Part shown: in pieces, positions 33,860 to 61,549 of the stretch
How the letters are laid out: each line of letters starts with the position of its first letter
Numbering within the stretch: position 1 is the stretch's first letter
Origin: a virus
DNA length: 64,000 nt
IMG/VR virus record: IMGVR_UViG_3300019477_000133
Span: 6,076-70,075 of that record
Strand: one strand, 5' to 3'
The notes under the pieces: model-generated
Databases searched by the model: none
What the model was told of the DNA's origin: nothing
What the model saw: the letters and a program-made list of their open reading frames with translations, nothing else
Made by a program: the position numbers and the translations under genes

Positions 33860-33870
33860 TAAAAGAAATA

Positions 33871-34029: not shown

Positions 34030-34065
34030 GTGACGGTTCGATTCCTTTCGTTCGCTCATTTTCAT

Positions 34066-38112: not shown

Positions 38113-38727
38113 ATGAATAATTTTTCAATTAAAGACAATAAAGGACAAGAACATTGGATTAGTCGTTCTGTTAGTGTGGTCATGTTTGTGTTTTGCAAGA
38201 ACTTGCGTGGAGAATGGTGTGTCTTGGCTTCACAGCGTGGCGAAGGCACTCCAGACCCAGAGTATATAAATGCATGGAATTGTCAGTGTGGTTATCTTGA
38301 TTATAACGAAACAACCAAAGAAGCAGCACAACGTGAGACATTGGAAGAAACAGGAATAAAAGTACCATCACATTTAATTAAGTTTTGGTCCTTTAATGAT
38401 AACCCTAACGATGATAAACGTCAAAATATTACATTTAGATATTATGCGGTGTATCAGCATGCAATTATTGATGACTTTAAGTTTTCAAAACAGAATATGG
38501 AGAAGAACGAAGTCGGTGCGATTACTTGGGTTAACCTAAAAAATATAGATAAAATGCGTTGGGCGTTTAATCATGACAAACTGATTAAAGGTGCTGCAGT
38601 GAAAGCAGGTATTATACCTTTTAAAATGAAATTACGTTTATGGTGGGAAAATTTTAAATTAGGATTTCGCACAAGATTAATTGAGTTACGTCAAGAATTT
38701 CATCAAAAAGACAACTTTATATATTAA
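38113..38727 (+). CDS. Nudix hydrolase
   Basis: Nudix box GYLDYNETTKEAAQRETLEETGI (GX5EX7REUXEEXGU). Confidence 0.65.
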   Translation: MNNFSIKDNKGQEHWISRSVSVVMFVFCKNLRGEWCVLASQRGEGTPDPEYINAWNCQCGYLDYNETTKEAAQRETLEETGIKVPSHLIKFWSFNDNPNDDKRQNITFRYYAVYQHAIIDDFKFSKQNMEKNEVGAITWVNLKNIDKMRWAFNHDKLIKGAAVKAGIIPFKMKLRLWWENFKLGFRTRLIELRQEFHQKDNFIY

Positions 38728-42900: not shown

Positions 42901-43881
42901 ATGGAAGATTTAGTTACAAAGCAACTTAGGAAACGTTTCCTCAAGGATTTTAATCTACCTATCCAAGTAATACAAGACCCTTACTTTACAGAGCGTCTTG
43001 AACTATGCGGTGCTACTCAAGATTATAATAATCTTCTTGAATACATCGACACCAATTATAGTGGTAGTTATAGAGCATTCTTAGATGCTTATGCACAAAT
43101 AAGAGATGAAATTGTTACTTCATGTTACAACTCAGAAGCGTTTAAACTGTTCAACAACAGTGACATTAAAGGTGAAAATCCATTGATTCCACAACGGAAC
43201 TTGTATACTGAAGAACAAGATGGAAATAGTTTTGTAAGCGTTGATTTAAAGAAAGCAAACTTTCAAGCACTTAAATATGTTAATTCCGAAATAGTCCTTA
43301 ATACTGATACATATGAAGGATTTATAGGAAAGTTCACGGATAGTGAATATATTAAGAAGTCAAAATATACAAGACAAGTTATCTTTGGAAAACTTAATCC
43401 GAAAAAGACAATTAGTATAGAGAAACGTATTATTAATAAAATTTATAAGACGCTTAATGATAAGTTCAATCTGACTGAATATTTAGAACCATATTCTATG
43501 TGTACAGATGAAATTATCTACAAAGTGAAAGATAACAATAATAACGTATTGACAGATTTGCTGTGTGATAAATCTTTAATGATGATGGAACAAATTATTA
43601 AAGACACACTCGGGTTTGAAGTACGCATTAATTATTTCGGTCTTAAGTTACATCAATTCAAGCTTGCTACATCGGAAGCAAAAGTCAATTCTTTCACTAA
43701 ATTGAATCATGTAACAAATGAGGTGTCTTATGCGTGTATTCCATCTACATACTATCCACAGATTTACAAATTAATTAATGGTTTAGATGTAACTAAGAAT
43801 GACCTTGTTTTTTATTATGAACATGAGTTGGCGACATTCTTAAACCCATTGGTAAAATTAAATAAAGATAATGAAATTTAA
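42901..43881 (+). CDS. hypothetical protein
   Basis: 326-aa ORF after the promoter acctttgcaacat. Confidence 0.5.
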   Translation: MEDLVTKQLRKRFLKDFNLPIQVIQDPYFTERLELCGATQDYNNLLEYIDTNYSGSYRAFLDAYAQIRDEIVTSCYNSEAFKLFNNSDIKGENPLIPQRNLYTEEQDGNSFVSVDLKKANFQALKYVNSEIVLNTDTYEGFIGKFTDSEYIKKSKYTRQVIFGKLNPKKTISIEKRIINKIYKTLNDKFNLTEYLEPYSMCTDEIIYKVKDNNNNVLTDLLCDKSLMMMEQIIKDTLGFEVRINYFGLKLHQFKLATSEAKVNSFTKLNHVTNEVSYACIPSTYYPQIYKLINGLDVTKNDLVFYYEHELATFLNPLVKLNKDNEI

Positions 43882-45172
43882 AATCAAAGATAAAAAGATA
43901 GAAAAAACCATCCATACAATACGTGCACTTATCAAAGGAACCAAATTTGAAGGTGTTACGTATGTTGTAGGTGGTTTTGTACGTGATACGTTAATGGGAG
44001 AAGTATCTAATGATTTAGACATTGTTGTTAATCTCCCGTCTGGTGGAATAGATTTAGCGAATACTTTAACAGAGTTGGATAATAGTCATAGTGACTCTAA
44101 TCCTATTGTATATCCTAAGTATGGTACCGCAAGCTTTCATTTAAAGAATAATGATGAATATTCTGATGTTGTTATTGAGTCTGTGGAAACACGGAAAGAA
44201 CAATATCATTCAGAATCACGTAATCCAGAAACATGTTTTGGAACTTTAGAAGAAGATGCATTTAGAAGAGACCTTACAATTAACGCATTGTATTACAATA
44301 TCTCAACAGATAAAGTAGAAGATGTTACTGGAAAAGGACTTGATGATTTGAAAAATCATGTTATCAGAACTACAAATGATAACCCTAACATAGTTTTCTT
44401 TGATGACCCATTGCGTATAATGAGAGTTATCAGATTTGCAAATAGATATGGCTGGAATATAGAAGAGAAGACGTGGAAATCATTGCAAGAATGTGCTTCA
44501 AGAATAAAGATTATTTCTAAAGAAAGAATACGTAATGAGTTGAATAAGATAATTGCCAATAAAGACTGTATAAATGGTTTGAATTATTTAAAAGATAGTG
44601 GTATTTTATCTTATATTCTTCCCGAACTATTTGAACAATGTTTTGTTCCATGTTCACAGGACTTTAATAGTATGTTTGATAAAATAGTTACAATATGTAG
44701 TCAAGCACCTATATGTTTATATACTCGTCTTTCAATTCTATTATCATTTTGCAAAACAGATAGCGCATGTGAAACTATTCTATCTCATCAAAAGCAACCG
44801 AATGTAATAATAAAGCATGTGCAGAATGCACTGTTAGGTAAAAACTTCAGAAGAGAAGACGAAGAATTAGAAGTATCTTTACGTAGATTATATAAGAAAT
44901 GTAACCAAAATATAGATAATGCATTATGGGTGTATCGAGTTTTTACAGATGAAGAAACTTATAACGAAACGGTAAATACGTGGCTAAAGATAAAAGATAG
45001 TGCTAAAATTTATCTTCCGATAGATGGAAATGAAATCTTCTCATATCGTGCAGATATTACAAATAATGACAGAAAATTATTAATTGATTATCTACACGAA
45101 GAACAATGCAAAAATCCTTTCTTAACAAAAGAAGAATGTGTTGAATTAATTAAACAATATCAGTTACATTAA
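43871..45172 (+). CDS. cca: tRNA nucleotidyltransferase (CCA-adding enzyme) / poly(A) polymerase family
   Basis: head-domain motif YVVGGFVRDTLMG...NDLDIVV (GGxVRD ... DxD); FRRDLTINALYY matches motif RRDxTINA. Confidence 0.7.
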   Translation: MKFKIKDKKIEKTIHTIRALIKGTKFEGVTYVVGGFVRDTLMGEVSNDLDIVVNLPSGGIDLANTLTELDNSHSDSNPIVYPKYGTASFHLKNNDEYSDVVIESVETRKEQYHSESRNPETCFGTLEEDAFRRDLTINALYYNISTDKVEDVTGKGLDDLKNHVIRTTNDNPNIVFFDDPLRIMRVIRFANRYGWNIEEKTWKSLQECASRIKIISKERIRNELNKIIANKDCINGLNYLKDSGILSYILPELFEQCFVPCSQDFNSMFDKIVTICSQAPICLYTRLSILLSFCKTDSACETILSHQKQPNVIIKHVQNALLGKNFRREDEELEVSLRRLYKKCNQNIDNALWVYRVFTDEETYNETVNTWLKIKDSAKIYLPIDGNEIFSYRADITNNDRKLLIDYLHEEQCKNPFLTKEECVELIKQYQLH

Positions 45173-45967: not shown

Positions 45968-47149
45968 ATGATTAAATCAATTTTAGATACAGATTTGTAT
46001 AAATTCAGTACTTCATATGCTTATTTTCATAAGTTTAATAGAGCGGAGGGAACATTTAAGTTTAACGACAGAAACAAAGAAGATTGGAGAAACTATCCAA
46101 ACTTTATGGATGAGATTGAGATACAAATTGAAAACTTATCCAATATTCGTCTTACAAATGAAGAAAGAGATTGGTGTGTTGAGAACATTGATTATATACC
46201 AGAGAATTATTGGGAATGGCTAAGTACTTTTCGTTTCAAACCAGAACTTATTAAGATGTGGCTGGATGACGATGGTGTCTTCCAGTGTGAGGTGACGGAT
46301 AAACTCTATCGTGTGACATTATATGAGATAGCTATTCTTGCCACATATGCCGAAGTAAGAAATCGAGTATTAGGAAATAAGATTAACATGGAGAAAACTA
46401 TGTTAAAATTAGAAGATAAGATTTCTTATGCTAATATGAATAGCCTCTGTTTTTCTGAATTTGGAACACGTAGACGATATAGTTTTAATGTACAAAATGA
46501 AGTCGTTAAACGACTAAAAGAAAAGTGCCCTGTATGTGCTGGAACAAGTAATGTGTATTTGGCAAAGAAACACCACATGCGACCTACTGGTACATTCCCT
46601 CACGAATGGATGATGTTTCATGCTGCTGTGTATGGATATAAGCGTGCGAACTACATGGGGCTTGAGGACTGGATTGATGTATATGAAGGTAATCTTGGTA
46701 CTGCGCTAATTGATACATATACTACTGAGTCGTTTCTTAGAACCTTAACCTTGCAGCAAGCTTTGCTTTTGAGAGGTTTCCGCCAAGATAGTGGTGATGA
46801 GTTTAAGATTGGTAATATGATTATTAAACGTTTACAAGAATTAGGAATCGACCCTAAGACTAAATTGCTTATCTTCTCAAATGCCCTTACATTTGAAAAG
46901 TATAAAGAAATTCATGATTACTTTAATGGACGTATTATGGTCTCAGCTGGAGTTGGCACAAATCTAACTTGTGATACAGATATCAAAGATTACAAACCAG
47001 CAAATATTGTCATGAAATTATCAAGAGCGAGATATAGTAGTAAAGACCCTTGGGAAAAGTGTATCAAAATTAGTGATGATATAGGCAAACACATGGGAGA
47101 TGCTAAGGAATTTGATAAAGCCATGAGTGATTTGCATTTGTCTGAATAA
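45968..47149 (+). CDS. pncB: nicotinate phosphoribosyltransferase
   Basis: N-terminus ILDTDLYKFSTSYAYFHKF matches the NAPRTase signature (LDTDxYKxxM). Confidence 0.7.
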   Translation: MIKSILDTDLYKFSTSYAYFHKFNRAEGTFKFNDRNKEDWRNYPNFMDEIEIQIENLSNIRLTNEERDWCVENIDYIPENYWEWLSTFRFKPELIKMWLDDDGVFQCEVTDKLYRVTLYEIAILATYAEVRNRVLGNKINMEKTMLKLEDKISYANMNSLCFSEFGTRRRYSFNVQNEVVKRLKEKCPVCAGTSNVYLAKKHHMRPTGTFPHEWMMFHAAVYGYKRANYMGLEDWIDVYEGNLGTALIDTYTTESFLRTLTLQQALLLRGFRQDSGDEFKIGNMIIKRLQELGIDPKTKLLIFSNALTFEKYKEIHDYFNGRIMVSAGVGTNLTCDTDIKDYKPANIVMKLSRARYSSKDPWEKCIKISDDIGKHMGDAKEFDKAMSDLHLSE

Positions 47150-48925: not shown

Positions 48926-49204
48926 ATGAAAAAGATTATATTATTATTAGTATTAGTATCTTCATTGATGTTAACTGCTTGTGAAAAAGCAGGAACACCA
49001 GTACAAACTAATGGAGCAAAACATGAATTTGATGTACAACTTCTATTTGAAGTTGATGGAGTAAAAGTATATCGCTTCTTCGATTTAGGAGAATATATTT
49101 ACTTTACTAATGCCAATGGTAAGACATCATATGTAACGGGCAGTAAAGTTAGTGAAAGAAAGACGAGTCTTAATAACAGATTAGAAAATGATGACAATGA
49201 TTAA
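48926..49204 (+). CDS. small lipoprotein
   Basis: MKKIILLLVLVSSLMLTACEKAG. Confidence 0.45.
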   Translation: MKKIILLLVLVSSLMLTACEKAGTPVQTNGAKHEFDVQLLFEVDGVKVYRFFDLGEYIYFTNANGKTSYVTGSKVSERKTSLNNRLENDDND

Positions 49205-49709
49205 AGATAAATTAGATGAACTGATTAAGAATGCAACCAAGTCAGGAAATGTTAACGCAAGAAGAATACTTAAACTCTTCAAATCAGAATTAATTGATTA
49301 TACTTTAAGTGAAATTAAAGATTCGCAAATTCAAGTACCAACTAATCTAACTGATGAAGAGAAAACAGAATACATCTCCAATAAGAAGAAAGAAATGAGA
49401 ACACTGACTGATGCAGTGGAAATAAATATTCTTCAAAAGTTGATTAAGAAACTGAACGATGAATTAACTTATGCCATTAAGTTGAATAGATATGAAACTG
49501 TAAATGATGTAAATGAACAACTCTTAATTCTCAAAGAACTTCTCCCTCCACAACCATCAGAGAATGAAATTGTGGAATTTATTAATAACGAATTTCCAAA
49601 TGGTTTCACTAAGAAACAAATGAGAGATGTTATAACAAGTGTGAAAAATAAATTCTCTTGTATAGATGGTGGATTAGTTGCGAAATTGTGTAGTAGCTTA
49701 GCAAAGTAA
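49188..49709 (+). CDS. hypothetical protein
   Basis: 173-aa ORF. Confidence 0.4.
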   Translation: MMTMIKDKLDELIKNATKSGNVNARRILKLFKSELIDYTLSEIKDSQIQVPTNLTDEEKTEYISNKKKEMRTLTDAVEINILQKLIKKLNDELTYAIKLNRYETVNDVNEQLLILKELLPPQPSENEIVEFINNEFPNGFTKKQMRDVITSVKNKFSCIDGGLVAKLCSSLAK

Positions 49710-49818
49710 TAGAATAAAAAAAAATGAGTAGAAGTTCTGTAAAAGTGATGTCTTATAGTTATTTTTTGAAATTAAAATCATATATAAATACTTATATATC
49801 AGTCACTTATACAGAGCC

Positions 49819-50249
49819 TACTGTTAGAAACGTTAAACCGCAAGGTAATCACAACGTCAATCATGGTAATGAATTGGCAATAAACACTGTTAGAAACGTT
49901 AAACCGCAAGGTAATCACAACTGTAACGTAATTGTCTGAAATATTTGTATTACTGTTAGAAACGTTAAACCGCAAGGTAATCACAACAGCACTACCAATT
50001 ATTATTTGATTTTTTTACTGTTAGAAACGTTAAACCGCAAGGTAATCACAACAGTCATTTACTAATTCAAATACTTCAATCGACTGTTAGAAACGTTAAA
50101 CCGCAAGGTAATCACAACGGCGTGGCAAGTGTTAAGGCAGCGTCTGAGACTGTTAGTAACCATTTACCGAAAGGTAATCACAACAATTATGACATTGCAA
50201 GGGAAGTAATGAAGACTGTTAGTAATATTAAACCGAAAGGTAATTCAAA
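49819..50249 (+). CRISPR. CRISPR mini-array 2: seven 36-nt repeats (ACTGTTAGAAACGTTAAACCGCAAGGTAATCACAAC; the last two degenerate) and six spacers of 29-30 nt
   Basis: five identical repeats then two decayed repeats; hairpin AACC-GCAA-GGTA; followed by hairpin ggggt...acccc. Confidence 0.85.
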
Positions 50250-50301
50250 GGGGTTTAATTCGACCCCTATATAAAATAAAGAAATTAAACATATTATATT
50301 T

Positions 50302-50925
50302 ATGGTGGATTTAAATAAGAAAATTTTAAACGAGGCTATAGAGGCTTGTTTAAAAGAAATGTACAGATGTAGTCAACCTTCAGCTGATTATGACAAGTTA
50401 AAGGAGGGAGCTAAAGAACACCCAGAAGAAGAGAAAGAATTTCCAACATTTAAACGTTATTACCTGTCAACAGAACAGTTTAAGTATATTTTAAAGAAAT
50501 ATGCTGAAGCTTATCATCTTACTCCTGAGTGGAGAAATAACATAGAAACTATCATAAGTGACTTTGAAACAGGAAGCATTAAACGAGATTATAAGAAAGA
50601 TAGCTATGGAAATATGGTTTGCGAGTATATTCCTACACCTCCTTTAAAAGAACGTATTGGGCAAGAAAATACCAAAAAAGTATTAGAAATGATAGATGAA
50701 ATATCTCATTTCTGTAAACGAGATATGGATGCACAGTATTTTTCTTCTGCAATTAGTCTTGGTCATTCTCCATCTTCCAATCTTAAGGAAGTGAAGGAAT
50801 ATTGGAATAATAGAGGCGTTGAAATAGAATTTGAAGAAAGAAATTGTGAGGAAGATACTTTCTTTGATATGGATTGGTTTGAGGTAACTTCATTAAAAGA
50901 ATTAGAAAAACATTTAAACGAATAA
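50302..50925 (+). CDS. hypothetical protein
   Basis: 207-aa ORF. Confidence 0.45.
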   Translation: MVDLNKKILNEAIEACLKEMYRCSQPSADYDKLKEGAKEHPEEEKEFPTFKRYYLSTEQFKYILKKYAEAYHLTPEWRNNIETIISDFETGSIKRDYKKDSYGNMVCEYIPTPPLKERIGQENTKKVLEMIDEISHFCKRDMDAQYFSSAISLGHSPSSNLKEVKEYWNNRGVEIEFEERNCEEDTFFDMDWFEVTSLKELEKHLNE

Positions 50926-50926
50926 A

Positions 50927-51178
50927 ATGATTAGAAGGAAATCTCCGTTAACTAAGAAAAAGAAAGAACCTATTGTTATCGGACTATGCCGAGATTGTGC
51001 GCATGCAACATTACTACAATGGGATAAGGACCCTTTAATTACTGATTGTGAACGTGGTAGAATGGTCGGTAGCATGACTGGTTGCGAAAAATGGGTGGAA
51101 TGTAAGGACAAAAGAGAACCAATACATTTAACACGTGGTCAAATCTTCGCTGATAATCAAATTAAAAATAAGGAGTAA
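50927..51178 (+). CDS. small Cys-rich (zinc-ribbon-like) protein
   Basis: CRDC...CERG...CEKWVEC cysteine pairs. Confidence 0.35.
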   Translation: MIRRKSPLTKKKKEPIVIGLCRDCAHATLLQWDKDPLITDCERGRMVGSMTGCEKWVECKDKREPIHLTRGQIFADNQIKNKE

Positions 51179-51549
51179 TGAAGTACATAAAAGAAATAAT
51201 ACAGTTAGAAGTGTTTGATGAAAGAGAAATAACTTATATCAGATGTAAATCATATCCAGGTAAAGTTACTGGCTTTAAATTATTTGGTATTAATTTTTTC
51301 GGAAAAGTTTCATCTGAATGGCGTTTTTCGGACGGAATAGATGATTATACTGAAGAAGAATTAGTTAGAACCTATCATTGCTGGATTGATAAAGATAATA
51401 AATGTGCCATTAGAAAACCATATATCACAATTCAATATGGCATTCATGATTATGATACAGAAAAAGTATATTTTGAACATTACAGAGAAGCACAAATAGA
51501 AGCAGAAAAACTTGCGATGCTATTTAATTTAAAAAAGATTGATAAATAA
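51178..51549 (+). CDS. hypothetical protein
   Basis: 123-aa ORF. Confidence 0.4.
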   Translation: MKYIKEIIQLEVFDEREITYIRCKSYPGKVTGFKLFGINFFGKVSSEWRFSDGIDDYTEEELVRTYHCWIDKDNKCAIRKPYITIQYGIHDYDTEKVYFEHYREAQIEAEKLAMLFNLKKIDK

Positions 51550-51792
51550 AAATATGAGATTTATTATTAATGAAAACATCCCTTTAATTTGTAATTATCC
51601 CAAGGGTTTAAAAAGAATATCTAATAAATATGTAAATCCAAAATTGTATGGAAAGATAAAAACTCTTAAAGATAATGATAGATAAATGTAGAACATGTAT
51701 TTATCAAAACAGTTGTGCCATAGCCTATTCTCATAATACTATGTGTGATGGAATTAAATTGGCAACTAATTGTACAAAATATCAGCCGATAA

Positions 51793-52458
51793 ATGCAAAG
51801 TAAAAGAAAAGATGATATGAATATTGAACGTGAAGTGGCAGGCTTTACAGACAAATATTTATATCCCAAACTTAAATTAAACATAACACGTACAGATAGT
51901 AAGCAAGAACAACTACAAGGTTATGATTTAATCGTAGATGTGGGTGACAAGAAATGGTATGTGGATGAAAAAGCAGCTATACATTTTGCTAACATACGAC
52001 TTGATAGTTTTGCTTTAGAAGTAAGTAGCCTAAATAACCCTAATGGCTTAGGTTGGTTGTTGGATGAATCTAAAAAAACAACTCACTTTGTATTTCTATG
52101 GTTAGATAAAGCAGAAATTCCAAAACTACCCAACGAATTTAAATATGATTATACTAAAATAACAAGTAGTAATATAAAACAAATACATTATGCATTTGTT
52201 AAGAAGACTGATTTACTTAACTACTTGAATGGAATTGGTTGGGAGAAAGAAACAATAAACCGTCAATCGGCTATTATAAGACAGCGTGACTGCTTAAAAT
52301 CCAACCAATGGGTAAATATGTCTGGAGATAACAAAAAGAGTTCAGAAGTGAAATTTTATTATTCTAAGCATCTAAAAGAAAAACCTATTGGAATAATGTT
52401 ACATAGATGTGCATTTGATAAGATTGCAGGCAATATGTGTGGTAATATAATTTTATAA
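51793..52458 (+). CDS. hypothetical protein
   Basis: 221-aa ORF. Confidence 0.4.
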   Translation: MQSKRKDDMNIEREVAGFTDKYLYPKLKLNITRTDSKQEQLQGYDLIVDVGDKKWYVDEKAAIHFANIRLDSFALEVSSLNNPNGLGWLLDESKKTTHFVFLWLDKAEIPKLPNEFKYDYTKITSSNIKQIHYAFVKKTDLLNYLNGIGWEKETINRQSAIIRQRDCLKSNQWVNMSGDNKKSSEVKFYYSKHLKEKPIGIMLHRCAFDKIAGNMCGNIIL

Positions 52459-52470
52459 AACAAAAAATAT

Positions 52471-53193
52471 ATGGAAAAAATTAATGTTATAATGTTTACG
52501 GACAAGTTTAATGATTCTCAAGAAAATGAGCCAAAGAAAGAATGTTGTAAATCTAATTTAAATGTAGATTTCTTCAAAGAGTTACTTAATAACTGTGATT
52601 ATCAATACTTACCATCAGTTATTAAATGCTATTGTAATAGACTTAAGAAATTGGGCTATGCAGAAATTGCCATTCAACTTGAGATAGAATTACTTAAAAT
52701 TTATCAGCGTAATAATGGTATGACTACGAGAGAAGTTGATAATATTACAGAACATCCAACTTTTACTCAAAATTATATTACATTTAAAACTGGACATAAT
52801 AGACATCATGAAGTTAGTCGTAGATTAGCTAATAGATTGAAGAGAGAATATAATATTCCAGAAGAGAATATTACATGGCTTCCTCACAATCAAACTTTAA
52901 AGTTTAAACACTTCAATTTTGATGTAACGCTTGATTCAACTATTAATAAGATTATTCAACAGTTGTTTACATCAGACAATCATTCTGTTAAGTTGGATAA
53001 TATATACAAGGCTGATTGGGAAATTTTATTCCTCATGGTTTCACAACGTCTTACTAACGAACATCGGTGGGTTAACTTCGAATGGATTGCTAATGATAGA
53101 ACTATTCGTCTTACAGGTAACTTCAAAGAAACAGAAGAATATAAACGTGGATTAATGGTTGATGCATTCAATTTTATAATGAAAACTGTATAG
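52471..53193 (+). CDS. hypothetical protein
   Basis: 240-aa ORF. Confidence 0.45.
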   Translation: MEKINVIMFTDKFNDSQENEPKKECCKSNLNVDFFKELLNNCDYQYLPSVIKCYCNRLKKLGYAEIAIQLEIELLKIYQRNNGMTTREVDNITEHPTFTQNYITFKTGHNRHHEVSRRLANRLKREYNIPEENITWLPHNQTLKFKHFNFDVTLDSTINKIIQQLFTSDNHSVKLDNIYKADWEILFLMVSQRLTNEHRWVNFEWIANDRTIRLTGNFKETEEYKRGLMVDAFNFIMKTV

Positions 53194-53308
53194 TAATAAG
53201 AGAGAGAATTATAAAAATATTCTCTCTTTTTTATTTTTTAACATATCATTTTCTATTAATTAATATTTTATTCGTATATTTGCATAGAATATTAAAAACA
53301 ATAATGTT

Positions 53309-54454
53309 ATGAAGAAAGAAAAAGATAATGTTCAAAATAGTAGCGATTATGATAAGCTATTGAAACAAAATGACGGAACCTGTAAAGTGACCATAGAAAA
53401 TAAAGAGGGAGTAATATTGCCCGACAATTTATTTATCAAAGAATTGCATATAAATAACTGTAGTAACATAGTATTACCAGCTAATCTTCATGTGACAGGT
53501 GATTTATTTATAGGTAATTCCAATAATATTACATTCGATGAGTCTACACAAATAGATAAAGATTTAATTTTAAAATATTGCTACGATATTAGTATTCCTT
53601 CATCTGTTAAACTTAATGGAGGTGTTAAAGTACGCAATGTTCAATTTAATACATTTACTTTACCATTAGTTGTAAAAGGAAGTTTGTATCTAATAAATAC
53701 GAACATCTCCTCATTACCTGACAATTTAATCATTAGAGATGATTTTAGGATAGAAAGTAACTCTATTAAAGAACTTCCATTAAATCTAAGAGTTGGTCAT
53801 AGTATTTATCTCCAGCACAGTACAATTAATAGAATACAAAATGGTCTTATCTGTGAAAGACTTATTCTACCAGATAATGTAGTTACATTTCCAGACGAAT
53901 ATATTATTACAAATGAGATAGGTGGTAAGTATGAGACGTTAGATAAATTAGATTTTAAGAAACATCCATGTCAGACTATTGCTATTCCTGATAATGGTTT
54001 CTACGAGCATCCTATTTACGAAGGATATAGAGCTAACATTTGTATGGGTTTGCCTATTTTGATAGAGAAGGAAAAAACTCGTATTTGGACAATGTATGAT
54101 AAAGAATATATGTATCCTAATGGACGTATATTAGAAATTATCAAGAAGAATGGGAATGTATATTTTTGTAAAAGTATTGTAAATAATAAAAGAAATTTCT
54201 GTATAATTCAAATTGATGAAGATGTGTTCATTTGTGGTAAAAATTTAACAGATGCTAAACTAAAATTAATAAGATATTCTTTCCAAAAAACATTTTGGAA
54301 GATTATGTATTTTGACACCAATATGAAAGTTCCGCATGATATAGCCAAAGCAATATTAGGAATGTTTAAACATTATTTAAAAATCAACAATGATGTATCA
54401 TTACCAGTTAAAGATGAATATACAATTGGAGAAATTATAGAATTAACGAATTAA
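53309..54454 (+). CDS. LRR-like protein with a conserved C-terminal domain (paralog family of 23025-24179)
   Basis: LPDNL/LPANL repeats; C-terminus EYTIGEIIELTN. Confidence 0.5.
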   Translation: MKKEKDNVQNSSDYDKLLKQNDGTCKVTIENKEGVILPDNLFIKELHINNCSNIVLPANLHVTGDLFIGNSNNITFDESTQIDKDLILKYCYDISIPSSVKLNGGVKVRNVQFNTFTLPLVVKGSLYLINTNISSLPDNLIIRDDFRIESNSIKELPLNLRVGHSIYLQHSTINRIQNGLICERLILPDNVVTFPDEYIITNEIGGKYETLDKLDFKKHPCQTIAIPDNGFYEHPIYEGYRANICMGLPILIEKEKTRIWTMYDKEYMYPNGRILEIIKKNGNVYFCKSIVNNKRNFCIIQIDEDVFICGKNLTDAKLKLIRYSFQKTFWKIMYFDTNMKVPHDIAKAILGMFKHYLKINNDVSLPVKDEYTIGEIIELTN

Positions 54455-54472
54455 ACGAATCATTAAAAGTTT

Positions 54473-54937
54473 ATGACAAAGAAAGATATTATAAATTTTT
54501 TAGAAAAGTATAATGATGACGATGAATTGTGTATCGTTTTAGATGAAGATAAAGAGAACAACTTTGTTTATACATCTAAAGAAAAAGATATGCTTGGTGT
54601 ATATAAGGAAGTTATCCGATTCCTTTCAGAAAATCATATAACATTCGATATCATGGCTTTATGCGAAATGATTTGTTCTGACAATATTGATAGTCTCTAT
54701 TCTCTTGGATATGTGAATGTAAATCATGTAATCAAGGATAATAAATTACATTTCAGAATATCTCCAAAAGACTTGGAAGAAAATGATAAACTTGAAGATG
54801 TACTTTTCGACTACCAAGATGGTATGGGCATATATCAAAGAACTCAATGGGAAGATAGCTATTATGGTTATTTACTTCTTCCATTAGGTACTGGTCTTCG
54901 AATGGATAGATTCTTTTGCGTTTATTTTACGTGCTAA
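54473..54937 (+). CDS. hypothetical protein
   Basis: 154-aa ORF. Confidence 0.35.
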   Translation: MTKKDIINFLEKYNDDDELCIVLDEDKENNFVYTSKEKDMLGVYKEVIRFLSENHITFDIMALCEMICSDNIDSLYSLGYVNVNHVIKDNKLHFRISPKDLEENDKLEDVLFDYQDGMGIYQRTQWEDSYYGYLLLPLGTGLRMDRFFCVYFTC

Positions 54938-55113
54938 AAATTAAAAATAATATAATATATGACACAAGAACAACAAATTTTCATTGCAACTTTACACTTT
55001 GTAACTTCATGGGCGGTGAGAAATGGTAAAAGCCCAATAGATATACCTGAAGATGTGCTAAAACAATATAAAGAAGAAGCAGAAGTTTTATGTAAAGTAT
55101 ATAATCTGTTGTA

Positions 55114-55410
55114 ATGGAACAAATTATTTGCTCTGCCATTTGGTATAATGATAACAATTACTATCCACATCAAGAAATATATGGTGTGGATAGTGGATTT
55201 GTAATTGGTGGTTTTAGACATAATAATATTATTGGTGCTTTTCCTACCAATAATAAACATAGAAATGATGAGAAAGAATATAAAACTATACAAGGATTTA
55301 TAACATCTACTGGTAGATTCGTGGATAGAAAAGAAGCAGCTGTAATCGCATATAATTCAGGTCAAATTAAAGAACAAGTTAAGTGGTTATTTTCCGAAGA
55401 TTTATATTAA
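55114..55410 (+). CDS. hypothetical protein
   Basis: 98-aa ORF. Confidence 0.3.
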   Translation: MEQIICSAIWYNDNNYYPHQEIYGVDSGFVIGGFRHNNIIGAFPTNNKHRNDEKEYKTIQGFITSTGRFVDRKEAAVIAYNSGQIKEQVKWLFSEDLY

Positions 55411-56648
55411 ATAGTATGACGAATAGTGAAATTATACTTAAATTCAAAGAAGAATATAATAAAGAACTTCAATATATTGATGAACGCTTTATTTGTGATG
55501 GAGATATAACGATTACTCATAAAGATGAAGTTTGGTTGCCAAACAACTTAACTATCAATGGATGTTTAACTATCAAGTTGTGTTGTTTAGTATTTCTTCC
55601 AGACAACCTATATGTTAGAGATGATATTTGTGTTGAATGTTGTAAAATTCTATTGATTGGTAATCATACAACATTTAACGGAGTTACCACTATTTCATAT
55701 TGTTATATAACTTCATTACCAACAAACTTAAAATTAAACGGAAGTGTCAATTTATCATTTTTACCATTAAGAATATTACCTGACTGGAAAGAAATAAATG
55801 GAACTTTATCTATTGATAATGTATCTATTGAAGAATTACCAAAAAATTTGATTATTAAAGGTTATCTAAATATAAAAGGTGGCTCTTTGAATAAACTTCC
55901 AGAAAATTTAGTTGTGTATAATACAATTGATATATCAATGAGTAATATAAGTGAGTTACAAAATGGATTAATATGTAGAAATATAATTTTACCTGATAAT
56001 AGGGTTTGCTTCCCAGAAGAATTTATCGCTATAGATTCGTTAAAAGGAACACCTGAAAGTTTACGGGGTCTATCATTACTTAAATGTCCAACACGTAAAT
56101 TGATTGTAGATAAACCTTGGTTATTCAAACCTAAACATAAATCACAATATGAATACTTTAGTAGAGAAAATAGAGAATTATGGGTATTAAAAAATTTAGG
56201 TGTTATCTGGAAAATTAATGGCAAAGAATATTTTCATAGCGATTATGATTCTTTTTTAGGTGAAATAATTGAACAAAATGATAATGTGTTTAAAATAAGG
56301 CATTTCTATAATAATAAAGAATACGTAGTTACAACTGATGGGGTTGATAATTGGGGAAGAGCAGAAACTGTGGAAGAAGCAAAGAGCAATCTGAACCAAG
56401 TACTTAAGAGGAGATATGTCCACGACTACAAATATTATACACAAGCAAAACGTCTTTCTATCTCGGATATATCAGAGTGTTTTCAAAACATCACAGGTTT
56501 AAGTCAAACTGAAACTTTTAATACTCTTTATAAAGTTCTACCAAAACCAATCCAAGATACATATACAATTGGAGATATAATGGAATATACATCAGACGAA
56601 CATTGCACTTTCAATTTTACAGAATATTTTAAAAATAAAAATGAATAG
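55383..56648 (+). CDS. LRR-like protein with a conserved C-terminal domain (paralog family)
   Basis: LPDNLYV / LPKNLII repeats; C-terminus DTYTIGDIMEYTSDE. Confidence 0.5.
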   Translation: MVIFRRFILNSMTNSEIILKFKEEYNKELQYIDERFICDGDITITHKDEVWLPNNLTINGCLTIKLCCLVFLPDNLYVRDDICVECCKILLIGNHTTFNGVTTISYCYITSLPTNLKLNGSVNLSFLPLRILPDWKEINGTLSIDNVSIEELPKNLIIKGYLNIKGGSLNKLPENLVVYNTIDISMSNISELQNGLICRNIILPDNRVCFPEEFIAIDSLKGTPESLRGLSLLKCPTRKLIVDKPWLFKPKHKSQYEYFSRENRELWVLKNLGVIWKINGKEYFHSDYDSFLGEIIEQNDNVFKIRHFYNNKEYVVTTDGVDNWGRAETVEEAKSNLNQVLKRRYVHDYKYYTQAKRLSISDISECFQNITGLSQTETFNTLYKVLPKPIQDTYTIGDIMEYTSDEHCTFNFTEYFKNKNE

Positions 56649-56736
56649 AAGACATATAATATTGATATATAAAGGTGAATTTTTGAGTTTTATTTTCTCT
56701 GTAAACAATTATATATTAAATACTTACATGTAGTTT

Positions 56737-57102
56737 ACTGTTAGAAGTATTATACCGCAAGGTAATCACAAGAAATCAATTGACGATATAATGAGAATTG
56801 ACACTGTTAGAAGTATTATACCGCAAGGTAATCACAACATGCACGAACATTTCAAAGGTTTTAATTACGTTGTTAGTAATCCTTTACCGCAAGGTAATCA
56901 CAACGAACACCCTGCACACTATTGAAGAGAACGAGTTATTAGTAATACTATACTGAAAGGTAATCACAACTACAATTGGTCATACCTCAGACGTGCAGCA
57001 ACTGTTAGCAATACTGTACCGCAAGGTAATTACAATGAGATAATCGTGGACCATTATACACGTGCTGATTTTAGTAATACCTTACCGAAAGGCAACTACA
57101 AT
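56737..57102 (+). CRISPR. CRISPR mini-array 3: six 36-nt repeats (ACTGTTAGAAGTATTATACCGCAAGGTAATCACAAC, progressively degenerate) and five 30-nt spacers
   Basis: exact 66-nt periodicity; spacers unrelated to each other; repeats decay toward the 3' end. Confidence 0.85.
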
Positions 57103-57179
57103 TCATAGAAAACTATTATTAACGCAATATCTTAAGAAAAAAGATACATAATTATTTGGTATTTACTAAATTTATTCGT

Positions 57180-57204
57180 ATCTTTGCAATGTTAATTTAA
57201 AACA
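57180..57204 (+). promoter_or_regulatory. promoter; exact duplicate of the 4719-4743 25-mer, with a -7 TAnnTTTG box
   Basis: gtatctttgcaatgttaatttaaaa. Confidence 0.5.
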
Positions 57205-57212
57205 TAAATAAA

Positions 57213-58004
57213 ATGGAAAAGGAAATTACACCTCATGAGTATTTTCTACAGTTAAAGACTAATGTAGAAAGTATTGACAATGAAAAGTTAAAGCAATCAT
57301 TTAATAACATCTGCTTATTGGCAGAAAAGTATAAAAAGACAGGTCAAATTAAATCTTTGGAGAAACTTAAATTCCTTGCAGAAGTAATGCAGAAGGAAGA
57401 AAAGTTGTTGGAAATTGGCGTTGATAAATTTATTTATAGAAGTGTTATCGAAGATTATATTGATAATGTTTCAAAAGATGTAGTAAAGATACAAGATTTG
57501 GAAGTGTACATGCGTGAGGTACCAGATGAAATCGTAGAAGTTATAGAAAAAACAAAAGACATCTTTGATAAATTTTATGTAGTGTTTACTGATTATACTG
57601 GTCAAGAAGAAAGAAAAGTAGAACAAGAACGTAGAGATAGAGACCCGATTCTGTTTGGTGTTTTTACCGATAGAAAAGTTGTGTCTGATAGATTCTATTA
57701 TCTGGGTGATTGGGAGGATGAATTTTGTGACCTTACATTAGATAAATTGGTTGCTGAATATAAAGCTGAGAAGCATCAAGACCCAGCAATAACTATCACA
57801 ATGCCTGCTACGACAGATGAATTGATTAATACTCTTAAACAATATACTGAAACTAACAAGAGCAATACACCTGACGATATTCATCGTAATAATAATCATT
57901 TTACATTAAGTAGCAATCGGGATTTATCATCAAATGAATATTTTAAAAAGAATAAAGGTTTCTTTGGTCGTATAAAATCCATTTTCAGTAAAAATGAAAA
58001 GTAA
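57213..58004 (+). CDS. hypothetical protein
   Basis: 263-aa ORF. Confidence 0.45.
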   Translation: MEKEITPHEYFLQLKTNVESIDNEKLKQSFNNICLLAEKYKKTGQIKSLEKLKFLAEVMQKEEKLLEIGVDKFIYRSVIEDYIDNVSKDVVKIQDLEVYMREVPDEIVEVIEKTKDIFDKFYVVFTDYTGQEERKVEQERRDRDPILFGVFTDRKVVSDRFYYLGDWEDEFCDLTLDKLVAEYKAEKHQDPAITITMPATTDELINTLKQYTETNKSNTPDDIHRNNNHFTLSSNRDLSSNEYFKKNKGFFGRIKSIFSKNEK

Positions 58005-58344
58005 TGTTGATTTAACCATAAATAGAGATTTTTCAAGACGTTTGTTAAATTTAGACATAACAGATACTCGTTTAGAAGGAAGAAGAAAACCTTTTGACCA
58101 AGATGAAATAGAAGATTTTGTCTATATCGCACCATGGTTTCCAAAAGGGAAAAGAGTTATGTGGCAAGGAAACAATTACTTTGAGACAATAGAATATGAA
58201 TGTGTCAAAGAAGACGAAGAAAAAATTCCTTGGAAATTTAATAACCCAAATTGTAATATAGATGATTATTATGAATCATGGTTTACCGAACATTTATTTG
58301 ACAAACCAGTGATTAAAAGTGAAACTGAGATATTAATTAGATAA
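57994..58344 (+). CDS. hypothetical protein
   Basis: 116-aa ORF. Confidence 0.35.
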   Translation: MKSNVDLTINRDFSRRLLNLDITDTRLEGRRKPFDQDEIEDFVYIAPWFPKGKRVMWQGNNYFETIEYECVKEDEEKIPWKFNNPNCNIDDYYESWFTEHLFDKPVIKSETEILIR

Positions 58345-58347
58345 TGT

Positions 58348-58878
58348 ATGGGTGTAAATTATTATTTAAAGAAAATCCCTTCTAAAGAACGAAAAGAAGA
58401 ACTTATAGAGGCTGTTAAAAAAGATGATGTTAATACAATAAGAAACCTTACCAATAATATGTATAACAATCTTATACATTTAGGTAAGAGTTCTATCGGT
58501 TGGCAGTTCAATTTTAATCCGAATTACGAATTACAATTTAATTATGAAACTGGTGAAATAGAAATTATCTATGCTTTTCCATTAACAAGAGAAGGAATTG
58601 ATAAATTTATACGTCAAGACGGATATATAATTGTAGACGAAGATGAAGAAGATTCTATGATTCCAACTATTAGTCCTGATGAGTTTTGGAAAAAGGTTGA
58701 CAGCAAAAAGAATGATATTGTTGAGATGGATGATGCAAGTAATTCTTATTGGAGAGATACTAACAAGAATACTTATATTAACTTTCTGAAAAAAGATTAT
58801 CCTAACGGAGATTATAGTTACCATAATAGTTTTGTTAACGATGGACTTCGTTTCTCATACAGTACTGAATTTTCGTAA
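58348..58878 (+). CDS. hypothetical protein
   Basis: 176-aa ORF. Confidence 0.4.
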   Translation: MGVNYYLKKIPSKERKEELIEAVKKDDVNTIRNLTNNMYNNLIHLGKSSIGWQFNFNPNYELQFNYETGEIEIIYAFPLTREGIDKFIRQDGYIIVDEDEEDSMIPTISPDEFWKKVDSKKNDIVEMDDASNSYWRDTNKNTYINFLKKDYPNGDYSYHNSFVNDGLRFSYSTEFS

Positions 58879-59005
58879 AAATATATAATAATCCACTAAT
58901 ATTTTGGTGGATTATTTTTGTTTTATATATTTTAACTAAATTTATTTTGTAGTATCCAATTCTTTTCTTAACTTTGCAAATATAATAATCAAATAAAAAT
59001 AAATT

Positions 59006-61153
59006 ATGCGTACTTTACTAATTCTTAGAGGTTGTATGGGCAGTGGTAAGTCTACTTTCATTAAGGAAAATGGTCTTACTGATTACACATTGTCAGCCGA
59101 TGATATACGTTTAATGTTTCATTCTCCAAAGATGAATGAAGAGGGCGATATGACTATTAGCGCACGTTCCGATAAAATGGTATGGGATACATTGCATACT
59201 ATGCTTGAGAACCGTATGCGTAATGGTGATTTCACTGTTATTGATGCTACACATAAGACATCTAAGGCTGTATCTAAGTATGTAGAATTAGCTGACAAGT
59301 ATCGCTATAATTGTTATCAGCATAATGTCGAGGCAACCTTGGATGAATGTTTGGAACGTAATTTGTTACGTGACCCAGTAAGACGTGTTCCAGACATTGA
59401 TATTCGTCGTGCATACAATATGCTTCAAGAAAATAAGTTGTCTAATCGTTTCAAGGAAGTTAATGATGTAGATGACATTCTCAATTATTACATTACCGAT
59501 GCTTCTGCATACAAGGAAGTAAAGATTATAGGTGATGTACATGGTTGTCACACATGCCTTTTAGAAGCTATTGGTGGCTCTTTAAACCCAGACGTGTTAT
59601 ATGTATTCGTTGGTGATTATTTCGACCGTGGTATCGAAAATAAAGAAGTGTATGAGTTCCTATTGTCACATTATAATGATGACAACGTGGTCCTTCTTGA
59701 AGGAAATCACGAGAAGCATATCTGGCGTTTGATTAACGGTGAGGAGATAACTTCAGAATACTTCAAGATGACACTTGATGAGATAACCAAGGTTTATCCA
59801 TTGGAACAGGTTCGTAAGGAGTTAAAGAAAATTTACTATCGTATGCGTCAGTGTTTTGCATTCACATACCGTGGTAAGAAATACTTGGTAACACATGGTG
59901 GACTTACATCTGTTCCAAATCTTACAACTATTCCAACAAACGACATGATTAAGGGTGTTGGGGGATATGATATGGAAGTAGATAAGATATATGAAGATAA
60001 TTATTTGCTTGGGAAGTGTCAGGACTTTATACAAGTACATGGTCATCGCAATACTCTTTCTACCGAACATTCAATTTGTCTTGAAGATTGTGTTGAATTT
60101 GGCGGTAACTTAAAGGTTTTCTCTATAACACCAGAATATGCTTCTATATTAAAATACGAAAATAAAGTGTTTAGTATAGATAATATGAATGCTTTTCAGC
60201 AAGTAGTATATAAGGTTGATGACCCAGAAGTTAAGAAGATAATGAATAGTCGTCTTGTTAATGTAAAGGGTTGTAAGCATAACATGTACTCTATCAACTT
60301 TAATCGTAATGCATTTATTGGAAAGAAATGGAACTTTGCTACTATCAAGGCACGTGGTTTATTTGTTGATAAGAATACAGGAGAAGTAAAGATGCGTTCT
60401 TATGATAAGTTCTTTAATATTGATGAACATAAGACAACTAAGAGAAATAAACTTGAAGAAACTCTTAAGTTCCCAGTAAAAGTAACGATAAAGGAGAATG
60501 GATATCTTGGAATTATGTCAGTAGTAGACAATCAGTTAGTATTTGCTTCCAAAACAACTGACAGTGGTCCTTTTGCTGAACGTTTTGAACGTATTTTTAA
60601 CGAAACTGTTAGTAAGCACGATAAAGACCTATTGAAGAATATCCTGAAGAAAGAGAATGCTTCGGCTGTGTTTGAAGTGATTAGTCCTACAGAAGACCCA
60701 CATATTATTAGATATGAAAAGGAAGAAGTGGTATTGCTGGACATTATCCATAATGTGCTTAACCTTGGTGAAAACTATACAGAAGAGTCAGATAAGTTCA
60801 AGAATTTCTTAAGAGAAAATACATCTTTGAGAATGCCAGACGAATTAGTTATTAATACTAATGATGAGTTATGGGAATACCTACGGACTAATATAGGAAC
60901 TAATGATTCCGTAGAAGGTGTTGTAGTCACAGATGCTACTGGATTCAAGTTTAAAGTAAAGTTCAATTACTATCTAATGGTGAAGAACCTTAGACGTATT
61001 ACTCAGATATTCAGAAAGTGTAAGCGTGATGGTACGCCATTTAACGAAAAAATATGTCGTAATGATATGGAAAAGAATTTCGTTAATTTCCTTGAAAAAG
61101 AAGATGATGGAGAAATGAGTATCATTGATTTATATGATAAATTTCAAAAATAA
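59006..61153 (+). CDS. pnkP: polynucleotide kinase-phosphatase with a C-terminal nucleotidyltransferase (ligase-like) domain (bacterial Pnkp-like RNA repair enzyme)
   Basis: P-loop LILRGCMGSGKSTF; calcineurin-like phosphoesterase motifs GDVHGC / GDYFDRG / GNHE; ligase motif I-like KVTIKENGYLG. Confidence 0.65.
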   Translation: MRTLLILRGCMGSGKSTFIKENGLTDYTLSADDIRLMFHSPKMNEEGDMTISARSDKMVWDTLHTMLENRMRNGDFTVIDATHKTSKAVSKYVELADKYRYNCYQHNVEATLDECLERNLLRDPVRRVPDIDIRRAYNMLQENKLSNRFKEVNDVDDILNYYITDASAYKEVKIIGDVHGCHTCLLEAIGGSLNPDVLYVFVGDYFDRGIENKEVYEFLLSHYNDDNVVLLEGNHEKHIWRLINGEEITSEYFKMTLDEITKVYPLEQVRKELKKIYYRMRQCFAFTYRGKKYLVTHGGLTSVPNLTTIPTNDMIKGVGGYDMEVDKIYEDNYLLGKCQDFIQVHGHRNTLSTEHSICLEDCVEFGGNLKVFSITPEYASILKYENKVFSIDNMNAFQQVVYKVDDPEVKKIMNSRLVNVKGCKHNMYSINFNRNAFIGKKWNFATIKARGLFVDKNTGEVKMRSYDKFFNIDEHKTTKRNKLEETLKFPVKVTIKENGYLGIMSVVDNQLVFASKTTDSGPFAERFERIFNETVSKHDKDLLKNILKKENASAVFEVISPTEDPHIIRYEKEEVVLLDIIHNVLNLGENYTEESDKFKNFLRENTSLRMPDELVINTNDELWEYLRTNIGTNDSVEGVVVTDATGFKFKVKFNYYLMVKNLRRITQIFRKCKRDGTPFNEKICRNDMEKNFVNFLEKEDDGEMSIIDLYDKFQK

Positions 61154-61549
61154 AAAATATGATTTGTAAAATTATTATTTTAGCAGTGCTAATGATGCGA
61201 TTAGGTGTAAATTTAGCTTGGCACGGTCAGACAAGACAAGTTAAATTTAGTTTTTGGTGGACTTTAGTGTCAACTACTATATCTGTAGGACTTCTGTATG
61301 GTGCTGGGTTATTTGATTAATTAACGTAATTTAACGTGGGTTATTTGCATAATCCACGTTTTTTGTTTATCTTTGTAGCGTCAATAAATGAATTGAAGTT
61401 ATGAATTTAGATTTTACTTACTGTAAAGGTGGGAAGTTAAATACTTGCAAAAGCTGTAAACGATTTACAAACGAACTTCCTCAAGAAATGGTCATGATGT
61501 ATGTACCAAATGATTATATCAAAGAGTGTGATTTGTTCATAAATAATGA

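Follow-up and report, generated by a model that had tools for sequence, protein, structure and literature searches.

The 64-kb stretch of viral DNA analysed here (positions 6,076 to 70,075 of the IMG/VR virus record IMGVR_UViG_3300019477_000133; hereafter the window) carries on its + strand three CRISPR arrays, of which the second, array 2 at 49820-50250, is the subject of this study. Array 2 consists of seven 36-nucleotide (nt) repeats located at 49820-49855 (R1), 49886-49921 (R2), 49952-49987 (R3), 50017-50052 (R4), 50083-50118 (R5), 50149-50184 (R6) and 50215-50250 (R7), and of six spacers at 49856-49885 (S1), 49922-49951 (S2), 49988-50016 (S3), 50053-50082 (S4), 50119-50148 (S5) and 50185-50214 (S6), all on the + strand. 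Repeat searching placed the starts of the seven copies 66, 66, 65, 66, 66 and 66 nt apart and Tandem Repeats Finder returned a period of 66 at the same site, so that the 66-nt periodicity proposed in a preliminary description of this DNA was recovered by both methods. The spacers measured 30, 30, 29, 30, 30 and 30 nt and no pair had more than 16 of 30 positions in common in any register, which excluded near-identical spacers. Manual parsing showed R1 to R5 to be identical (ACTGTTAGAAACGTTAAACCGCAAGGTAATCACAAC), while six substitutions in R6 and eight in R7 indicated a decayed trailer end, in keeping with the five perfect and two degraded copies reported previously. The earlier reading of a genuine CRISPR array with seven repeats and six unrelated spacers of 29-30 nt was thus confirmed by the repeat parse, and its location (49819-50249) was correct apart from an offset of one base at each end.

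Array 1 (37442-37741, +; five repeats, four spacers and a leader of its own) and array 3 (56737-57102, +; six repeats, five spacers) belong to the same repeat family, the latter apparently as a fusion scar of two arrays that flank an operon in related phages. The 3' core AAGGTAATCACAAC occurred 15 times in the window, always on the + strand and always within arrays 1-3, in comparison to a chance expectation of 0.77 per shuffle, and none of 100 shuffles reached 15 occurrences; the common family membership of the three arrays that had been suggested before was upheld. Array 2 is preceded by a conserved, AT-rich leader of about 110 nt (49710-49819, +) that is alignable with its counterparts in arrays 1 and 3 and in the stand-alone arrays of two relatives, L056 and L057, and the blocks common to the aligned leaders include AATAAAAAAAATGARTAGAA, TAAAAGTGATG, TTTTTTGAAA and CTTATA.AGAG. 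No such leader precedes the array that directly follows the cas operon in relatives; that array begins 6 nt past the cas5fv stop codon. The terminal repeat of array 2 is followed by a stem-loop (GGGGTTTAATTCGACCCC; 50250-50267, +) that resembles a terminator without a U tract, and this GC hairpin, noted previously, was retained after the syntenic arrays of relatives, including a compensatory variant (GGGTCG..CGACCC versus GAGTCG..CGACTC). A consensus terminator scan did not call the array 2 stem-loop, and the sigma-70 promoter and terminator consensus may not suit what is likely a Bacteroidota system. That the leader, array position and terminator-like hairpin are conserved in many relatives is as expected of a transcription unit that is maintained, as the preliminary description had supposed, and the open reading frames (ORFs) at 49724-49939 (+) and 49799-49984 (-) overlie leader and array and are best read as artefacts.

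Folding of the array 2 repeat gave a 3-bp hairpin, ACC-GCAA-GGT (-2.7 kcal/mol, z +0.15), and other members of the family fold up to TTACC-GNRA-GGTAA. Across the family the hairpin can be written (T)ACC-GNRA-GGT(A), with 3-5 bp, and is followed by 7-9 invariant nt, (A)(A)TCACAAC. Pairs 20:25 and 19:26 were present in 86-93% of 127 family repeats and pair 18:27 alternated between A-T and T-G. This layout of a hairpin with a 3' tail of 7-9 nt suits a Cas6-type cut that would leave an 8-nt 5' handle. Rfam models found no CRISPR-DR or other family on array 2, even at E <= 10.

The association of the repeat family with cas genes was established from other viruses. Scanning IMG/VR for two copies of GGTAATCACAAC at array spacing identified 44 stretches on some 30 viral contigs (10-360 kb). 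Many of the contigs hold several arrays, and many were 80-97% identical to the window at the nucleotide level with arrays at the same three positions. Close relatives (for example IMGVR_UViG_3300008147_000007) possess an operon encoding Cas3, Cas6, a Cas7fv-like and a Cas5fv-like protein. Their Cas3 (about 803 aa; Pfam Cas3_HD and Cas3-like_C_2; PADLOC Cas3fv, 4e-43) aligns with positions 131-826 of the 951-position Cas3fv profile and leaves the N-terminal part of that profile unmatched, and their Cas7fv-like protein (375 aa) matched PDB 5o6u_C from the Shewanella I-Fv Cascade (1e-19), PF28157 (Cas7fv-like) and, under its curated cut-off, NCBIfam NF040577 (7.5e-25). A Cas5fv-like subunit stands in place of the large subunit in this operon, and the gene tables of the relatives' loci examined listed no Cas8, Cas11, Cas1 or Cas2. 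A second IMG/VR scan based on Cas3 yielded 41 viral loci, including the contigs closest to the window as well as distant phages whose Cas3 was 27-33% identical and whose repeats still ended in GG(T/G)AATCACAAC; arrays at these loci comprised repeats ending in GGGAATCACAAC besides GGTAATCACAAC. Because the arrays adjoin a Cas3-Cas6-Cas7fv-Cas5fv operon in relatives, the repeat family is assigned, from gene content, to a predicted phage-borne, minimal type I-Fv-like system without cas1 and cas2.

Two observations on individual relatives are recorded alongside this assignment. The distant relative L062 (7311-7980) has unusual repeats in which the 3' core is duplicated in nested form (AATTTATAAGGTAATCACAACTAAGGTAATCACAAC) and a different gene order (cas6, cas7, cas5, array, cas3). 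L055 (36-1676) and L107 (4461-6089) encode a TnpB/Cas12f-like protein of 542-546 aa (NCBIfam guided_TnpB, 7e-24; PADLOC Cas12f, 8e-23); its gene immediately precedes the mini-array and cas3 in one of them and is located at a different site in the second, and this protein may represent a mobile element or a second RNA-guided nuclease.

The window itself lacks the operon. Gene order in relatives runs from YqeY and an array through a 210-aa gene and further genes to genes of 221, 240, 385, 154 and 410 aa, and then continues with a two-repeat mini-array, cas3, cas6, cas7fv, cas5fv, an array, genes of 263 and 176 aa and Pnkp; the window follows the same order minus the cas genes. Window positions 50019-56837 align with L057 1090-7907 and positions 56739-61401 with L057 13736-18412, a gap which indicates that L057 7907-13736 (5.8 kb, the cas operon) is missing, and tblastn detected no cas homologue anywhere in the 64-kb window. 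Array 3 marks the site. Its R1-S1 corresponds to the mini-array upstream of cas3 in relatives with one mismatch, its R2 (56803-56838) is chimeric, with a 5' part from the mini-array repeat and a 3' end (CACAAC) as in the downstream array, its S2 is the counterpart of spacer three in the array that lies downstream of the operon in relatives, and from there S3-S5 keep the relatives' order. The junction looks like what recombination between two directly oriented arrays would leave.

Loss of the operon was not confined to the window. It was also absent, with other junctions, from contigs 3300008734_000012, 3300008575_000009 (210 kb), 3300008611_000011 and 3300007125_000014 and from L109, and L106 has a larger deletion that removed array 3 and neighbouring genes altogether. 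No Cas3 match was obtained in the Cas3-based scan for 3300008734_000012, 3300008575_000009 and 3300008611_000011 (105-210 kb). The different junctions suggest recurrent loss of the operon, and cas-less genomes coexist with cas+ ones. Where this site is covered in close cas+ relatives (L055, L057/L059 and L058), cas3 is preceded by a leader and a mini-array of two repeats and one spacer (L057 7807-7908; L058 7852-7953; L055 1689-1790), which could serve as the operon promoter/leader or as a guide against rivals; the L058 mini-array spacer matches cas3 of other phages at 28 of 30 positions and differs from its own cas3 by nine mismatches.

Matches to four of the six array 2 spacers were found in one family of temperate, siphophage-like viruses of about 28 kb, with both DNA strands targeted. 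S1 is identical over 30/30 positions to metagenomic contig L112 (1861-1890) and also matches L115 (5467-5496), on the sense strand of an integrase gene and with TGG-N4 upstream; the gene encodes a large serine recombinase (Pfam Resolvase and Recombinase; PHROG 95 integrase, 9e-59). S3 matches the opposite strand of the same gene about 230 bp from the S1 protospacer (26/29, L112 1607-1635; mismatches at spacer positions 16, 27 and 29). S2 matches L116 4482-4511 at 26/30 positions, antisense to an 812-aa gene of unknown function and again with TGG-N4 upstream. S5, which has a GC content of 60%, matches the sense strand of a tape-measure gene at 24/30 positions (L118 11081-11110), and five of its six mismatches (positions 3, 15, 24, 25, 27 and 30) fall at every-third-base positions. 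Exact searches returned neither the S1 20-mer nor an S5 20-mer from IMG/VR, nor an S5 24-mer from the metagenome collection. The 15 spacers of the window gave no match among INPHARED phages, PLSDB plasmids or the window itself, and nine further loci from structural regions of the relatives contained no additional protospacers.

Contigs with homologues of the targeted integrase have lengths grouped around 28 kb, and their terminase, tape-measure and lysozyme genes, together with the integrase, indicate a small temperate siphophage-like family. The search space for this family was estimated at about 45 kb of non-redundant sequence, and about 27 spacers from many genomes of the clade matched it, several perfectly. 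Judged from these matches, the ~28-kb family is the predicted main target of array 2, in what would be an inter-phage arms race. One target contig (L117/L118; NCBI FLSB01002977.1, 51.8 kb) contains the target integrase twice, about 28 kb apart, and looks like a concatemer; a target genome that is circular or terminally redundant would fit.

Comparison of syntenic arrays provided evidence of turnover. S6 is common to array 2 and the syntenic array of relative L023 (IMGVR_UViG_3300008734_000012), while S1-S5 are unique to array 2. The same pattern was seen among syntenic arrays generally, where trailer-end spacers were common and leader-end spacers differed, and where leader-proximal repeats were identical and older ones had diverged. 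This indicates polarised spacer acquisition that is active or was so recently. The phages of this clade also appear among one another's targets. The YqeY-domain gene located immediately upstream of the array 2 leader (49188-49709, +; Pfam YqeY, 1.2e-10) is matched by spacers of relatives L015 (49241-49270, 30/30) and L009 (49531-49558, 26/28), the 263-aa gene of the window is matched by an L020 spacer, and the cas genes of rivals are matched by L024 (cas7, 30/30), L058 (cas3, 28/30) and L109 (cas5fv, 26/29), so that the operon shed by the window is itself a target of rivals' spacers. Spacer S4 of array 3 (56971-57000, +) derives from the cas5fv-like gene of a rival phage; in frame it reads YNWSYLRRAA, identical to a segment of the Cas5fv-like protein in L055, and it shows 5-7 nt mismatches to the closest known cas5fv-like alleles. 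The phage that targets cas7 has a cas7 of its own which departs from the rival allele, matched perfectly by the spacer, at positions 2, 5 and 8 of that spacer, the seed end for a type I guide. The clade has about 285 spacers in all. With respect to composition, 140 unique spacers of the close clade had a mean GC content of 36.9%, compared with 31% for the window, and 28 of them had at least 45% GC where about nine were expected; this excess indicates that part of the pool targets something GC-richer than both phage families, possibly the host.

Sequences flanking the protospacers were also surveyed. GG at positions -6/-5, usually as TGG, was found in 8 of 33 protospacers compared with 0.85 expected (Poisson p = 3e-6, uncorrected for positions inspected), and the flank was T-rich with G depleted at -4 to -1. 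Seven of these eight protospacers, including those of S1 and S2, corresponded to spacers of cas-less genomes, and the frequency of the motif was 7/16 for spacers of cas-less genomes and 1/14 for those of cas+ genomes (Fisher p = 0.04). Protospacers of the clade occurred on both strands and included perfect sense-strand matches; by manual count seven of the nine TGG-N4 protospacers, that of S1 included, lay on the sense strand. In Flavobacterium columnare, type VI-B arrays fed by type II-C machinery likewise show an upstream, N-spaced motif, with the end that bears the protospacer adjacent motif (PAM) facing the leader (PMC8092290). By analogy, the motif suggests that a II-C-like integrase of the host may supply the phage arrays with spacers; such feeding would account for the TGG-N4 footprint, for arrays built of 36-nt repeats and 30-nt spacers, and for the similarity with the repeats of Cas13b. 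The preliminary description had advised looking for Cas13b-type flanking preferences; the upstream N-spaced geometry is that of VI-B arrays, but the motif is TGG-N4 and not TTTA-N5.

Taken together, we consider it likely that array 2 is a genuine orphan CRISPR array of a phage-borne I-Fv-like system without an adaptation module, that the cas operon has been deleted from this genome, and that the carriers are a clade of large phages, probably of Bacteroidota. Under this interpretation array 2 would be transcribed from its leader on the + strand, and cleavage of each repeat by Cas6, about 8 nt before its 3' end, would leave the 5' handle AUCACAAC. Cascade together with Cas3 would next degrade the rival temperate phage's DNA, and new spacers would be inserted by a type II-C-like Cas1-Cas2 of the host. 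The orphan array could act only with Cascade and Cas3 supplied in trans, for example by a co-infecting cas+ relative, or else it would be decaying. Several observations weigh against this interpretation. The geometry of 36-nt repeats and 30-nt spacers is not the expected 28/32, the hairpin of the array 2 repeat is no stronger than that of shuffled sequences, and the Cas6 of the relatives (227 aa) is recognised by generic TIGR01877 and PADLOC Cas6b models and not as Cas6f. No clear type I PAM emerged from the 33 protospacers, which show no CC consensus at -2/-1, and no target was found for S4 and S6. The proposed II-C link comes from a motif in eight protospacers and from analogy, and the window represents 64 kb of a genome of probably 100-220 kb, elsewhere in which a cas operon could lie; three long contigs of relatives without the operon at this site (105-210 kb) nevertheless yielded no Cas3 match.

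The preliminary description had attributed the arrays to Cas13b of the host, and the repeats of the two kinds of system were accordingly compared. A scan of 185,579 bacterial species representatives (one genome per species), in which the exact 3' 12-mer was required in two copies, returned ten loci only. Most were Cas13b loci with the HEPN motifs RNFYTH and RNKFAH, from Bergeyella, Capnocytophaga, Chryseobacterium, Sphingobacterium and uncultured Bacteroidota. The 3' 14 nt of the phage repeat (AAGGTAATCACAAC) is identical to the direct repeat (DR) ends of the Bergeyella, Capnocytophaga and Sphingobacterium loci, the 36-nt bacterial repeats sometimes also share their first 7 nt with phage repeats, and array 2 has the conserved, GGTAAnnACAAC-like DR 3' end and the 29-30-nt spacers of type VI-B. 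The resemblance is real and probably not accidental. The proposed likeness to Cas13b repeats held for the 36/30-nt architecture, the 3' end and the 5' xTTG, but failed for fold and overall identity. No bacterial array in the scan had a repeat identical to that of the phages, and alignment of the repeat variants with host Cas13b repeats, counted position by position, gave at best about 25/36 for array 2. The two stems of a Cas13b DR (5' GTTG paired with 3' CAAC, and an internal stem) both form in the Bergeyella DR (-11.2 kcal/mol, z -3.4), while the array 2 repeat begins ACTG, lacks the Cas13b DR fold, and belongs to a family in which pairing of positions 1 and 36 was possible in only 37% of the 127 repeats. 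No Cas13b-type ORF (about 1100-1200 aa with two HEPN RxxxxH motifs) was found in the window or at the viral loci examined, and spacers from the Cas13b arrays of the ten bacterial loci matched neither the window nor its relatives, giving no host link. As a separate observation, six viral contigs without a Cas3 match (L012, L013, L025, L026, L029 and L041) contain arrays of 5-6 repeats that fold like true Cas13b DRs (for example ATTGTGAATCATCCTTAAATGAAAGGTAATCACAAC, -7.6 kcal/mol, z -2.4), and these may be the Cas13b-type phage mini-arrays envisaged originally.

A scheme in which VI-B Cas13b of the host processes and loads the phage guides and cuts transcripts of rival phages would account for the repeat and spacer lengths, the shared 3' 14 nt, the GTTG with which some array copies begin, the lack of a cas homologue in the window and the N-spaced upstream motif reported for VI-B arrays (PMC8092290). 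We nevertheless regard it as improbable, because relatives have Cas3/Cascade genes in physical linkage with the repeat family, the array 2 repeat has neither the stems, the 5' start nor the overall identity of a host DR, and a pattern and tblastn scan of limited sensitivity found no Cas13b in IMG/VR. The strand of the targets bears on the same question. Because S1 has the sense-strand sequence of its target gene, a CRISPR RNA made from it could not pair with the target mRNA, and the seven sense-strand TGG-N4 protospacers would be useless for RNA targeting. Natural VI-B arrays, however, hold spacers of both orientations, many of which do not target mRNA, and sense-strand spacers are compatible with the Cas13b scheme to that extent (PMC8092290). 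A codon-model strand test on clade spacers detected no antisense bias (137 sense-like versus 132 antisense-like, with scores near those of shuffled spacers), but the test has low power and spacers of host Cas13b arrays likewise divided about 50/50. Action through host Cas13b is less likely than action through the Cascade of a co-infecting relative.

Whether the arrays do anything after cas loss is a separate matter. That all three are functionless and persist only as the deletion is recent agrees with the absent operon, the decayed trailer repeats, the disappearance of array 3 and its neighbours from L106, and the 3-6 mismatches in three of the four array 2 matches. Against this, several cas-less genomes with different junctions all retain intact leaders and homogeneous leader-proximal repeats, the newest spacer S1 is perfect to a sequenced target, and the unique leader-end spacers of cas-less genomes carry the flank motif (in the proportions given above), hinting at acquisition after the loss. 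The perfect newest spacer, intact leader and retention of arrays in several cas-less lineages speak against a mere relic without proving function, and we judge this explanation rather unlikely. In a comparably tentative proposal, cas-less phages would be guide-only combatants that have shed the operon, with arrays still fed by host II-C and guides executed by the effector of others. This effector may be the Cascade/Cas3 of a co-infecting relative, directed at the 28-kb enemy or at the relative itself, or host Cas13b, and I-Fv-like phage arrays and Bacteroidota VI-B arrays would then resemble each other because both are clients of one II-C machinery. Transcripts of the array could also act as decoys that soak up Cas6/Cascade of rival cas+ phages or Cas13b of the host, in the manner of RNA anti-CRISPRs (Racrs); phage repeat mimics that poison Cas complexes are known (PMC10651486; reviewed in PMC11656645), and the window has repeats but no cas genes while rival phages of the clade carry the cognate Cascade. 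Racrs, though, are solitary repeat units, whereas array 2 has seven repeats and six spacers, four of them with targets, and a decoy would need neither spacer turnover nor matches to a specific enemy, so that this role seems very improbable. A simple tandem repeat or assembly artefact has periodicity in its favour and nothing else; unrelated spacers, syntenic arrays with other spacers in many independent assemblies and matches to foreign phage DNA led us to reject it with near certainty. The orphan I-Fv-like array remains our preferred interpretation.

The assignment to type I-Fv needs to be read against its reference. Canonical I-Fv arrays have a 28-nt repeat with a stable hairpin, an 8-nt 5' handle, 32-nt spacers and a CC PAM. 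The type I-Fv (I-F2) reference is Shewanella putrefaciens CN-32, for which a Cascade structure is available (PDB 5O6U; PMC4937334). In comparison to that system, the phage loci lack Cas1, their Cas3 is not fused to Cas2, their Cas6 is of the Cas6/Cas6b type, their repeats and spacers measure 36/30 nt with a weak hairpin and no CC PAM was seen; they are also phage-borne with several dispersed arrays that have their own leaders, and the cas genes are deleted in the window. The type I-F system of Vibrio phage ICP1 offers a biological parallel, being an I-F-related system on a lytic-type phage that is aimed at one integrative element of the same host (PMC11656645, PMC10161043) and that only some members of the phage population carry (PMC11656645). 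ICP1, however, has its own Cas1, Cas2/3 and Cas8f, whereas the phage clade has no adaptation module at the loci examined, and in contrast to the phage-inducible chromosomal island-like element (PLE) the target here is an entire temperate phage of ~28 kb that has genes for terminase and tail, and the window keeps arrays only.

Further parallels exist among viral arrays. Huge-phage CRISPR systems also have compact arrays (median six repeats), usually no Cas1, Cas2 or Cas4, and anti-phage spacers, although those of Al-Shayeb et al. (2020) are, in the available part of that report, a type I-C variant, type II and type V (PMC7162821). The mini-arrays of Sulfolobus viruses SPV1 and SPV2 are cas-less and directed against competing viruses (PMC11656645), but their spacers number one or two and their repeats are the same as in the host's CRISPR, unlike the 4-6 spacers and the cognate cas genes in sister phages seen here. 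F. columnare VI-B loci share 36-nt repeats, 30-nt spacers, the lack of cas1 and cas2 at the locus, reading from leader to array, an upstream motif N4-N5 from the protospacer and the 3' repeat end common to Cas13b DRs (PMC8092290); the phage systems differ from them in their Cas3/Cascade effector, in TGG-N4 (8 of 33 protospacers) in place of TTTA-N5, and in that host II-C feeding is proposed by analogy (PMC8092290). Earlier work has described phage CRISPR systems that lack adaptation genes as well as arrays deployed in conflicts between phages (PMC11656645; PMC7162821), and a literature search turned up no account of the I-Fv-like variant seen here, of Cas13b-like repeats in it, of anti-cas spacers, of operon loss that forms a scar or of a II-C-type footprint. 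Phage CRISPR with an identified enemy is rare, with ICP1 versus PLE as the standard example, and our data point to a second natural system of this kind. Its testable features are a minimal, Cas8-less Cascade on large phages, a ~28-kb target phage, spacers against rival cas genes, apparently repeated loss of the operon from between its flanking arrays, which leaves orphan arrays, and a motif suggesting a borrowed host II-C integrase. Such borrowing, if true, would be relevant to the question of why array features are common to CRISPR loci that lack adaptation genes and belong to different types, and the compact four-gene effector with its 36-nt repeat may be of practical interest.

The remaining content of the window looks like part of a large phage genome. 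It has a GC content of 31% with nearly all long ORFs on the + strand, encodes a tail-fibre-like repeat protein, and carries 16 tRNA genes (24609-34138 and 8547-8633), including three tRNA-Met and two tRNA-Glu. The Bacteroidota -7 box TAnnTTTG was enriched upstream of genes (10/54 occurrences compared with 6.9% expected, p = 0.004), and INPHARED contained no relative of the window or of the array 2 flanks. Proteins the same as, or nearly the same as, those encoded here occur in samples SRR5637667, ERZ27318940 and ERZ27319649. Most tRNA genes form a 10-kb cluster interleaved with small ORFs, within which a 380-aa TnpB is encoded (32717-33859, +; OrfB_IS605, Cas12f1-like TNB and HTH_OrfB_IS605 domains), and this TnpB/tRNA region is partly repeated or rearranged among relatives. 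Four other genes (59006-61153, 43871-45172, 45968-47149 and 38113-38727) comprise one for a Pnkp-like kinase/metallophosphatase/RNA ligase, one for a NUDIX hydrolase and two whose translations resemble a CCA-adding enzyme and a nicotinate phosphoribosyltransferase. These genes resemble a toolkit for RNA repair and nicotinamide adenine dinucleotide (NAD) salvage, possibly with a role in counter-defence. A BspA-type leucine-rich repeat protein is encoded at 36259-37227 (-). Three paralogues with leucine-rich-type repeats and a C-terminal domain ending ..YTIGEIIELT.. are located at 23025-24179, 53309-54454 and 55383-56648, the first of which contains a 60-nt DNA periodicity (23198-23673), and the paralogue gene that adjoins array 3 is variably present among relatives.

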